NCBI RefSeq assembly: GCF_058153355.1
Contig: NZ_CM177019.1
DNA: 64,000 nucleotides
Reading direction: 5' to 3' (one strand)
Numbering within the stretch: the first letter of the stretch is position 1; each line of letters opens with the position of its first letter. Of this stretch, positions 60,369 to 64,000 are shown piece by piece. The notes beneath the pieces are model-generated. The model saw nothing but the letters and a program-made list of their open reading frames with translations. It had not been told where the DNA came from and ran no database searches. Made by a program: the position numbers and the translations under genes.

Positions 60369-61040
60369 ATGTATTGTGATATAACAGACTTGGTTCCGAA
60401 AACTATTCAGTATAAATATATCAAATCCTATGGACCCCTAAATAAATATCAGCTAAAACGGATAGAGCAGACAATTGATAAAGCACTGGGTGAATATCCA
60501 AGGGTGATGGCAATAAGGGTGGAGCTTCATATGCCCGTACGCAGGCCGCTCTGCGATATGCTCCTTGCCGATGATTATGCCAGAACAGATGCTGCTGCAA
60601 TCTCACGGTTCAATGCTTCACTTAATGCGAAGATAAAGCACTATGAGCTTAAACAGAAAAAGGCAGGTAAGCGGGTACGTGAAACTTCATCTCGTATTGT
60701 GTGGGCCAGGGAGTTCTGCCCTACGAATAATAAAAAACACTATCACGTTTTGCTTCTACTTAACCGGGATGCTTTTAATAGTCTTGGATCGTTTGAGAGT
60801 GATAATGGAATACTGCTTCGTCTTATCCGTGAAGCATGGATGAGCGCTATTAATTTGATTTATCCTAAAAATAAAGAACTGGTACAGATACCTGACAATC
60901 CATGCTATTACATAAGTGCAAAAAACGGTAAGCAAAGTGAAGCTTACAGAGAGCTGATATTTCGCTCAAGTTATCTTGCTAAAGAGGAAAGTAAATGTTT
61001 TACAGATGGGGAGCGAAATTTTGGTTGTAGTATTAAGTGA
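60369..61040 (+). CDS. Hypothetical island protein, possibly inovirus Gp2-like replication-initiation family (YagK/YfjJ-like)
   Basis: 223 aa low-GC ORF with GAGGG RBS; family assignment from memory of YagK/YfjJ-type proteins, not verified. Confidence 0.4.
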   Translation: MYCDITDLVPKTIQYKYIKSYGPLNKYQLKRIEQTIDKALGEYPRVMAIRVELHMPVRRPLCDMLLADDYARTDAAAISRFNASLNAKIKHYELKQKKAGKRVRETSSRIVWAREFCPTNNKKHYHVLLLLNRDAFNSLGSFESDNGILLRLIREAWMSAINLIYPKNKELVQIPDNPCYYISAKNGKQSEAYRELIFRSSYLAKEESKCFTDGERNFGCSIK

Positions 61041-61354
61041 AGAGATACAGTGGGTTATAAGACTTGTTAAGTAAAGATTTTTTAAAAGAACAACAGTATC
61101 GATTATATTTTCGAAGGGGAGGTGAATATCAGGAGTGACTCAGTGAGATGTGTCTCAGTTATAAATAAATTGATAAGTAATTATTAATAGTCGTGAGGTT
61201 AAATCATTTTCAATTTCTATAATGCTTACAGATTGATGTTTTAAACTAATTCAGTCCGATGCAATCTAATTCCACTGAGGTGGCTTCACAGCATAAATTT
61301 TAACGTTTAAGTTGCTCTCCTGCTCTTCATCCAAATGATTCATAGGAGATAGAA

Positions 61355-62040
61355 ATGAACACTAATCCACTTAATACAAATTTCTTAAAACTTAAATTTC
61401 CACCACTTTTTGAGGAAGTAACACAGGCCACACAAGCCATAACGCATGCACCGGCAGAGTTGATCACAGGAGTACAGTTGTCGGTAATGTCACTCGCGGC
61501 TCAGAGTGTGGTTGTGTTTGAACACAGTGATGGAAGAAGAAGCCCTGTGTCTCTTTACAGCATTGTACTGGCTGAATCAGGGGAGAGGAAAACGGCAGTG
61601 TGCAATCTCCTGCAGAAACCGATACAAGACTTTCAGAAAAAGCAACTGAAGAATTATGAGGAGAAAATAAATGTCTATGAAGCTGATTTGCAGTCATGGG
61701 CTGTCTTGAACAAAGCTATTATCCGCCAGATTAGGAAAAATATCGAGAAAGGAGGTGATAGTGTTTCTGAGCAGGAGAAATTGAGAAAGCATTACATTAA
61801 TAAACCTACCCCTCCAAAGCGACCAAAGCTTTTATACAGTGATGCGACACCTGAGGCTATCATCCAGGGACTGGTTGAAAGCATAGGTACGTCAGGTTTA
61901 ATCTCCGATGAAGGCGGTGTGATTTTTAATGGGCGGGCGATGGGTAATACACCTCTTTTTAATCAACTCTGGGATGGTGGGGGCGTTGATGTGGAGCGTA
62001 AAGGGCATCGACTGAACATTGATGATGCACGGCTAATGAG
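61355..62040 (+). pseudogene. DUF3987-like (YfjI-like) gene, C-terminally truncated by IS66-family insertion
   Basis: ORF 61355..62149 reads from island sequence into the IS end near 62040; last 30-odd codons are IS-derived. Confidence 0.5.
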
Positions 62041-62069
62041 TAAGCGGCTCGCCAGAACCGTATTGATAT

Positions 62070-63641
62070 TTACTGAGAGCTCAGATCAACTTTCCAGGGC
62101 AACAGATCGCGTACCCGGTTTGCCGGCCAGTCCTGGATATGTTCAATGACGTAACGCAGCCACTTTTCTGGCTCCACATTGTTCAGACGGCATGTGCCGA
62201 TCAGCGAGTACAACACCGCAGCATGTTCACCACCGCTGTCAGAACCCGCGAAGAGCCAGTTTTTCCGGCCTACGGCCACTCCCCGTAAGGCGTTCTCTGC
62301 GATGTTGTTGTCGATTTCCACCCAGCCATTACTGCAGTACACGTTCAGTGCATCCCACTGTTTCAGCAGGTATGCGAACGCTTTTGCCGTGTCCGAGTGA
62401 CGCGACAGTGTTTTCATCTGTTGCTGTATCCAGTCATACAGTGACTGCATCAGTGGCGCGGCTCTGGCTTTTCTTGCCGCCAGACGCTGTTCTGCTGAAC
62501 AGCCCCGGACCTCTGCCTCGATGGCATACAGTTCACCGATACGCTGCAGGGCTTCCGTGGTGATGTCGGTGGGCACTCTTGCATGCACATCGTGGATTTT
62601 TCTCCGGGCATGAGCCATACATGCGGCTTCCGTTATTCTGCCGGATTCGTACAACGCCCGGTAACCACCGTAAGCATCGGCCTGAAGCACTCCGCTGTAA
62701 CCGGCCAGATGATTCTGTGGATGGATACCTTTCCGGTCCGGGCTGTACGCGAACCAGACCGCCGGAGGCATTTCCGAACCGGCGTTACGGTCATCACGAA
62801 CGTAGACCCACAGCCGGGCAGTCCTTGTTTTACCGCTGCCCGGCTCCTGGACCGGAACGGGGATATCATCGGCATGGACTTTACCGGGCATCAGCACATA
62901 CTGGCGCAGGATGTCATACAGCGGTTCCAGCAGTTCAGCAACAGCACCTGTCCAGCGCCCCAGTGTGGCACGGCTCAGCTCCACGCCCTGACGACGGTAT
63001 ATTTCTGACTGGCGGTATAACGGCAGATGGTCTGCATATTTTCCAGCGACAACATGGGCCAGAAGCCCCGCTCCGGCATAACTGCGTGCAATGGGTTTTG
63101 AAGGCACCGGAGCCTGCACGATATGGTCGCACCGGCAACAGGCCAGTTTCGGACGTTGTGTTTCGATAACCTTAAAGGCGCTGCTGATAAGCTCCAGTTG
63201 CTCTGACACATCACATCCCAGAGAACTGAGTTCGCCACCACAGGCCGGGCAGCATTCCTCTTCCGGACGGATGACCCGGGTTTCACGGGGAAGTGAGGCA
63301 GGTAACGGTTTACGGGCTGAAGACTGGCGCAGGGGAGATGGCAGTACCGGGTCATATTGCTCACCCAGCGTTTCCGCCATTTCTTCCTGAAGAGCGCTGA
63401 TTCGCTCCTGTGCTTCCTGTATCTGCCGTTCGGTTTTTGCACGAAGTTTTTCTGAGCTTTTACCGAACTGCATGCGCTGCAGTTTTGCAACCAGCGCCTT
63501 CAGCCGGTTGATTTCGGAAGCATAAGCCGCCACCCGCTGTGAGAGCAGGCGGTTGTATTTCGCCATCTGGCGGATGGTGTCCTGTTGCGTCTGCAACAGT
63601 GCCCGCAGGCGGGCATTCTCATGAGCAAGTGAGGTGTCCAT
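62070..63641 (-). CDS. tnpC: IS66-family transposase TnpC (Orf3)
   Basis: 523 aa; N-terminal leucine-zipper-like region, CPACGGEL...CCRCDH zinc-finger motifs, DDE-type core. Confidence 0.88.
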
Positions 63642-63660
63642 ATCCTCACTTTACAACGGG

Positions 63661-64000
63661 TTATATGCGGATGCCAGCGCGTTCCGTTCGTTTCGGGTGT
63701 TTCCAGTCGATGCCCTCAAGAAGCATGGATAACTGGGCCGGAGTAAGGTGCACCTTGCCGTCACGGGTGACCGGCCAGACGAAGCGGCCCCGTTCCAGGC
63801 GTCTGGTGAAGAGGCACAGTCCGTCGCTGTCAGCCCACAGCACTTTTATCTGGTCACCCCGGCGTCCGCGGAAGATGAACAGGTGTCCGGAGAACGGGTC
63901 ATCCTTCAGGACGTTCTGAACTTTTGAGGCCAGGCCGTTAAAGCCATTTCGCATATCGGTGATACCTGCAACCAGCCAGATACGCGAACCTGCAGGGAGA
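63661..64000 (-). CDS. tnpB: IS66-family accessory protein TnpB (Orf2), 5' end beyond window
   Basis: ORF MRNGFNGLASKVQNVLKDDPFSGHLFIFRGRRGDQIKVLWADSDGLCLF...; reading frame stays open upstream to window edge (..LPAGSRIWLVAGITD). Confidence 0.85.
   Translation of the reverse strand, partial: LPAGSRIWLVAGITDMRNGFNGLASKVQNVLKDDPFSGHLFIFRGRRGDQIKVLWADSDGLCLFTRRLERGRFVWPVTRDGKVHLTPAQLSMLLEGIDWKHPKRTERAGIRI

Follow-up and report, generated by a model that had tools for sequence, protein, structure and literature searches.

The right-hand end of the 64,000-nucleotide stretch of contig NZ_CM177019.1 (RefSeq assembly GCF_058153355.1) analysed here, called the window in its full length, carries two plus-strand genes followed by a minus-strand insertion sequence (IS) of the IS66 family, and the IS splits the second of the two genes at codon 229. 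The first gene (60369..61040) is intact and encodes a protein of 223 amino acids (aa) in the YagK/YfjJ family, also named the 'inovirus Gp2 family', a putative HUH-type Rep-like nickase. It is followed by an AT-rich intergenic spacer of 314 bp (61041..61354), in which an AGGAG ribosome-binding site precedes the start codon at 61355 (ATG) by 8 nt. The second gene is present as its 5' part, 61355..62039, which makes up 685 nt, codons 1-228 and one further nucleotide of a 470-aa YfjI-family/DUF3987 gene (MCM-like, superfamily 6 (SF6)). It reads on into the IS and forms a chimeric open reading frame (ORF) at 61355..62149 on the plus strand, 264 aa long, with 228 native and 36 IS-derived residues and an in-frame stop at 62147-62149. 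The IS-derived tail (62040..62149, plus strand) supplies the last two bases of codon 229, then 35 more foreign codons and the stop codon, and overlaps the 3' end of the transposase gene tnpC in antisense orientation.

A megablast search with positions 60369-62045 found the gene pair in nine of 5,426 complete E. coli genomes. Six of the nine are colinear with the query up to its base 1671, which is window position 62039, and in these genomes the second gene, of 470 aa, carries the annotation "YfjI family protein". The similarity to such uninterrupted 470-aa genes stops precisely at 62039: intact alleles read ...CACGGCTAATGA|CGCTTATTG across this point, as compared to ...CACGGCTAATGA|GTAAGCGGCTCG in the window. 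Of the intact alleles that were fetched, the six that contain the 20-nt probe have ...CACGGCTAATGA|CGCTTATTGTCACG, against ...CACGGCTAATGA|GTAAGCGGCTCGCCAG in the window, and in a longer context all six read ...GATGATGCACGGCTAATGA|CGCTTATTGTCACGCAG, where the window has ...GATGATGCACGGCTAATGA|GTAAGCGGCTCGCCAG. The initial annotation of this DNA had seen an IS66-type end at about 62040 in the ORF; 62040 is precisely where the intact alleles part from the window, and it is the terminal base of the IS.

The same annotation had described a DUF3987-like protein that has lost its C-terminal part, with the breakpoint to be located on full-length proteins. In the protein alignment, 228 of the 470 residues remain before the break and the C-terminal 242 are gone, and residues 229-264 of the ORF do not align to full-length YfjI. 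The Pfam model DUF3987 scores 142.6 bits in the 264-aa ORF (cutoff 27) and covers model positions 2-198 of 364 only, whereas in a full-length YfjI relative it scores 253 bits and covers positions 2-363 with residues 32-390. Domain and alignment matches across the locus had E-values from 1e-41 to 0, far above chance. An ORF that ends naturally near 62040, with the IS merely lying downstream, was the observation that had been named beforehand as speaking against a truncation. Nothing but the in-frame stop can be put in its favour, and it is ruled out by the full-length homologues, which are 470 aa long and colinear past the breakpoint, by the Pfam coverage that stops at 198 of 364, and by the last 36 residues, which are encoded by IS DNA. 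Its probability is practically nil.

Among the intact relatives the nearest is L005 (GenBank CP057243.1), from a genome outside the complete E. coli collection. It has one mismatch to the query in 1,671 nt and its first 228 amino acids are identical, and over window positions 57573-62039, compared to 7205-11671 in L005, two of 4,467 bases differ (99.955% identity). By this measure the YfjI fragment has not drifted, and the insertion looks recent. The junction itself was in none of the public collections scanned. A 30-mer across it was not found in the GTDB representative genomes, nor a 24-mer in the JGI metagenome contigs; the junction was covered by none of the 5,426 complete E. coli genomes, and a protein look-up gave no record of the chimeric 264-aa product. 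Its absence from the three genome and metagenome collections would also be consistent with an assembly misjoin at a repeated IS, and insertion sequences are classic points of misassembly. However, the join sits exactly at the terminal base of the IS, as it would in a true insertion, and even for a misjoin a real IS end would have to lie beside this sequence somewhere in the genome. We consider a misjoin very improbable.

The IS66-family element is ISCro1-like, lies on the minus strand and is seen in its right-hand 1,961 bp (62040..64000). It starts with the right inverted repeat at 62040-62065, GTAAGCGGCTCGCCAGAACCGTATTG, with GTAAGCG at the terminus. The gene tnpC (62070..63641, minus strand) is intact and encodes a 523-aa IS66-family DDE transposase, in which four IS66 Pfam domains were found, LZ_Tnp_IS66, zf-IS66, DDE_Tnp_IS66 (PF03050, 348 bits) and DDE_Tnp_IS66_C, and which scores 479 bits with the NCBIfam model transpos_IS66 (NF033517, cutoff 180). 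The gene tnpB for the IS66 Orf2 accessory protein is cut by the window edge (63661..64000, minus strand) and is predicted to begin near position 64008. TnpB matches PF05717 (TnpB_IS66) with 120 bits and NF033819 (IS66_TnpB) with 113.7 bits (cutoff 50), and it aligns with the 115-aa TnpB of ISCro1 from residue 4 on, the first three codons being beyond the window. These Pfam and NCBIfam matches, and the edge-cut tnpB, bear out the earlier reading of tnpC and tnpB on the opposite strand in an element that runs past the window edge.

Positions 62040-64000 are 96.8% identical, without gaps over 1,961 bp, to a 2,699-bp annotated ISCro1 copy in E. coli LSN03-016011/A (L001 2513-4473), with 63 substitutions; by this comparison the visible part is 73% of the element. 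Of the 523 residues of TnpC, 513 agree with the transposase annotated for ISCro1. Among the complete E. coli genomes and the PLSDB plasmids there was no copy above about 97% identity. The exact-protein look-up found the exact TnpC on one contig only, unrelated and plasmid-like, and it led to a copy that is 100% identical over the 1,961 bp (L014 5525-7485; GCA_047897835.1, contig ABXYKR010000031.1, in an F-plasmid-like context). The L014 element (5017-7485) is a 2,469-bp mosaic. From tnpB through tnpC to the right inverted repeat it resembles ISCro1 (97%). The left 501 bp, with the left inverted repeat and a gene for a 139-aa HTH_Tnp_1 TnpA, have no match to ISCro1, are rare in E. coli and derive from a different, rare IS66-family element. 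The left inverted repeat of L014, GTAAGCGTCTTATCAGGACCGTCTGG, matches the right one, GTAAGCGGCTCGCCAGAACCGTATTG, at 19 of 26 positions. The element in the window is probably the same ISCro1-like mosaic as in L014, in which case its left end would lie at about 64508, as compared to about 64738 for an ISCro1 of 2,699 bp. It resembles ISCro1 in the colinear order of tnpB, tnpC and right end, in the GTAAGCG terminus and in the 8-bp duplications at sampled ISCro1 copies, and it would differ from it in length, 2,699 bp as compared to 2,469 bp for the L014 element to which the visible copy is identical, and in the non-ISCro1 left 501 bp. By ISfinder convention, two elements count as isoforms if their full-length nucleotide sequences are 95% identical or more.

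The related copies are flanked by 8-bp target duplications, CTCTTATA at L001, GCTACTCT at L003, which is a second ISCro1 copy, and CACCGGAC at L014, and an 8-bp target duplication is the rule in the IS66 family (PMC6778807). From these copies the target site in the window is predicted to be GCTAATGA, the 8 bp at 62032..62039 that abut the IS end. If the insertion was a simple one, the far flank of the IS would begin with GCTAATGA and continue with CGCTTATTGTCACGCAGAAAAATG... into the remainder of yfjI. The top ISCro1 BLAST matches started 6-23 nt to the left of 62040, which for a time suggested that the IS end was longer or that the element prefers certain targets. This idea was dropped because the intact alleles set the end at 62040 and the flanks of L001 and L003 are unrelated, and because the matches listed were the longest-covering of 4,423 records, which is a bias of the ranking.

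It is conceivable that the IS is instead the scar of a rearrangement, either a recombination between two IS copies or a deletion adjacent to the IS, and that other DNA follows it, such as the different island that the initial annotation had considered, the 3' half of yfjI and the rest of the island having been removed or moved. ISCro1-like copies are abundant in E. coli, where a genome can have as many as 33 matching places, and could serve as recombination substrates, the far end of the IS is outside the window, and an IS3-family element has cut the same gene in three complete E. coli genomes with loss of downstream genes (see below). Nevertheless, there is no sign of a rearrangement within the window, where the IS ends cleanly at the left junction and the island DNA beside it agrees with an intact relative at 99.955% identity. 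Moreover, 8-bp duplications that match each other flank most of the IS copies that were examined. A rearrangement thus seems rather unlikely, and a simple insertion is the reading that we prefer.

The function of the interrupted gene can be approached from its full-length relatives. Full-length YfjI matches PHROG 2373, "DNA helicase", with an E-value of 2.5e-54, and a HMMER search found 8,380 YfjI relatives among 1.84 billion representative proteins, many of the longer ones with N-terminal Prim-Pol or Toprim primase domains. No meaningful match to either the YfjI-type or the Gp2-like protein came out of a sequence search of the PDB, and no NCBIfam model matched either of them. Another YfjI paralogue, in L001, is only 30% identical. 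Modelled at full length, YfjI has the structure of an MCM-like AAA+ ATPase that ends in a winged helix, and the model matches MCM, SCCmec Cch and the SaPI5 primase-helicase. In agreement with this, DUF3987 proteins have been assigned to superfamily 6, as helicases related to MCM whose C-terminal domain is a winged helix (PMC4889955). ATP-dependent DNA unwinding has been demonstrated only for a distant member of the family, the 5'-3' helicase AgaPH (PMC11724360).

Eleven residues are invariant when 60 stand-alone relatives (27-57% identity) are aligned: G76 and K79 in the Walker A motif (SGERKT), E186 in the Walker B motif (SDE), R215, Q234, G253, R257, R270, R350, R432 and L444. In the model, the break after residue 228 interrupts a core beta-strand (residues 226-233). 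Both Walker motifs, A (G76, K79) and B (E186), are still present in the fragment. Missing from it are the rest of the core strands, seven of the 11 invariant residues and the conserved arginines, as well as the helical lid and the winged helix. A complete AAA+ core with lid and winged helix is thus not found in the fragment, and because these parts are lost it should not be able to form a working ring helicase. The truncated product is probably inactive as a helicase, as far as can be judged from the model.

The upstream 223-aa protein matches PF11726 (YagK_YfjJ_C) with 160.7 bits, and an identical protein is read on 24 public contigs (41 blocks listed in the index). In an alignment of 61 homologues (28-94% identity) H124 and H126, in KHYHVLLLLN, and Y202 and K205, in SYLAK (YxxK), are invariant. 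In the HUH superfamily the HUH motif precedes the tyrosine in Rep initiators, and the order is reversed in relaxases. The predicted fold is that of a HUH Rep nuclease, with Rep and NS1 nucleases and not relaxases as the top structural matches. These motifs and this fold make the protein a putative HUH-type nuclease with the order of a Rep. Its homologues score just under the threshold for PF23343 (REP_ORF2-G2P), and PF11726 has been used as a model for the Rep proteins of Microviridae and Inoviridae (bioRxiv 10.1101/555375).

The label 'Gp2-like' that the protein had been given holds for the motifs and for the Rep fold, but not for similarity to real inoviruses at the level of BLAST. A tblastn search with the protein against 50,697 phage records found no inovirus. 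The sole match among these records (L018, OR844780.1; 37% identity) was discarded; it is a 4.4-kb contig from a phage preparation, marked UNVERIFIED and with 3.7x coverage, and is likely to be host or island DNA rather than phage. 'Gp2-like' is therefore a relation at the level of the fold and not a close homology to the inovirus gpII.

The pairing of the two proteins was interpreted in the initial annotation as a disabled replication module of an integrative element. With a HUH/YxxK Rep fold in one and a helicase-type, MCM-like ATPase in the other this is a reasonable inference. In such a module the YfjJ-type HUH protein would nick and the YfjI ATPase would unwind, so that the excised island could drive its own replication, and the insertion of the IS would disable this activity. 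We put the chance that the pair replicates the excised island somewhere between about even and moderately good. Other small mobile elements also join a ring ATPase to a function in nicking or initiation, as in the parvovirus and CRESS Rep proteins with their SF3 helicase, in SCCmec Cch and in SaPI Pri-Rep. The likeness to these systems is in fold and motifs only: in the window the two functions are on separate genes, and the helicase is MCM-like and not SF3. The DUF3987/SF6 helicases of phages and mobile elements, such as AgaPH, differ in that YfjI has no fused or adjacent primase and has a HUH nuclease for partner, and in that the window copy is a fragment of 228 residues.

The disabled pair could also have had another role, for mobilisation, with a relaxase- or transposase-like nickase, or as a phage-defence or accessory system. 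The accessory genes for DUF932, RadC and CbtA/CbeA go with the pair in every related island inspected, and a search for an origin near the genes found none. In the 314-bp spacer (61041-61354) there was no origin-like element, and its DNA fold did not stand out from that of shuffled sequences (z 0.10). Over 59973-61360 no significant origin-like hairpin or iterons were found, with weak two-copy repeats as the only signal, and the promoter and terminator scans near the gene pair gave background, with promoter-like matches at or below the shuffle expectation. Against a role outside replication, the protein has the HUH motif before the tyrosine, as in Rep, and its top structural matches are Rep and NS1, while relatives of YfjI are fused to primases and YfjI itself matches MCM, SCCmec Cch and the SaPI5 primase-helicase. 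On balance such a role is unlikely, and we favour replication.

The window covers the E. coli gab-ileY-ypjA neighbourhood, with an ileY-type tRNA at 49522-49597, upstream of the island. This tRNA has a CAT anticodon and is called tRNA-Met by ARAGORN, and its RefSeq orthologue is annotated as tRNA-Ile (ileY-type). Another call in the window, a tRNA-Arg(tcg) on the minus strand at 17036-17107, overlaps a plus-strand cluster of Ser/Arg tRNAs and is probably spurious. The exact YpjCB protein of the window was found on one 3-kb contig only. The CbtA toxin/CbeA antitoxin pair and the genes for DUF987, RadC and DUF932 (57729-59972, minus strand) all look intact, and an AT-rich spacer of 396 bp (59973-60368) separates the DUF932-side genes from the divergent Gp2-like gene.

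In intact relatives the plus-strand pair is followed by an HTH_26 gene and then, on the minus strand, by two genes for unknown proteins, a WYL/HTH regulator, a GTPase and AlpA. An integrase is found at the end of the island in L002, L007 and L003, the three relatives that were fetched that far, and in L002 and L003 it adjoins ssrA. The arrangement resembles that of the CP4-57-type yfjI/yfjJ islands of E. coli. They have the same two protein families ('YfjI family protein' and 'inovirus Gp2 family protein') and the same order of gab genes, ileY and ypjA followed by CbtA/CbeA, DUF987, RadC and DUF932, with ssrA and the integrase further on in relatives. The window differs from them in that its variant of the pair is rare (nine of 5,426 genomes) and its helicase gene is interrupted. 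The host locus of the insertion would then be a CP4-57-like cryptic island downstream of ileY, which in related genomes reaches ssrA. The module also occurs at other chromosomal sites, next to P4-like or P2-like remnants. In L005 the left context of the block from CbtA to yfjI is different, with DinI, YbjQ-like and sugar-metabolism genes, which suggests that the block moves between chromosomal sites or hosts.

Damage to the gene pair was also observed elsewhere. In three complete E. coli genomes (L017 5987-7444, NZ_CP149565.1; H32; H34) a yfjI-type gene is cut by an IS3-family element at the equivalent of window position 61544, and the downstream HTH_26 gene and a gene for a 239-aa protein are lost. 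The yfjI of a draft genome (L010) is frameshifted and split into 219 and 258 aa. E. coli A3 (L016 2796-6672) and A26 have an internal stop in the Gp2-like gene; their module is 90% identical and adjoins a retron Ec67-type reverse transcriptase (L016). Independent damage of this kind fits a relaxed selection on the gene pair of a cryptic island, or a selection against the module.

Taken as a whole, it is probable that an IS66-family element transposed by simple insertion into codon 229 of the yfjI-type gene and disabled what would be a replication module made up of a Rep-like nickase and a helicase. Such an insertion into a gene of a cryptic island is an ordinary event, and both the IS family and the families of the disrupted genes are already known. 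The finding is by itself of small significance, as insertions of this kind are commonplace and belong to the routine decay of mobile elements. It does give a case, precise to the base and with independent parallels, of IS-driven decay of putative island replication genes, and it adds an in silico argument that yfjJ/yagK may encode a HUH Rep-like nuclease and yfjI an MCM-like helicase, and with it the hypothesis that these proteins replicate islands. We would suggest, tentatively and as the less probable outcome, that the HUH and MCM-like pair is a previously uncharacterised two-gene module of rolling-circle style, which would amplify excised AlpA/integrase islands of the CP4-57 type in Enterobacteria, and that its repeated independent inactivation may reflect a selection to immobilise these islands.

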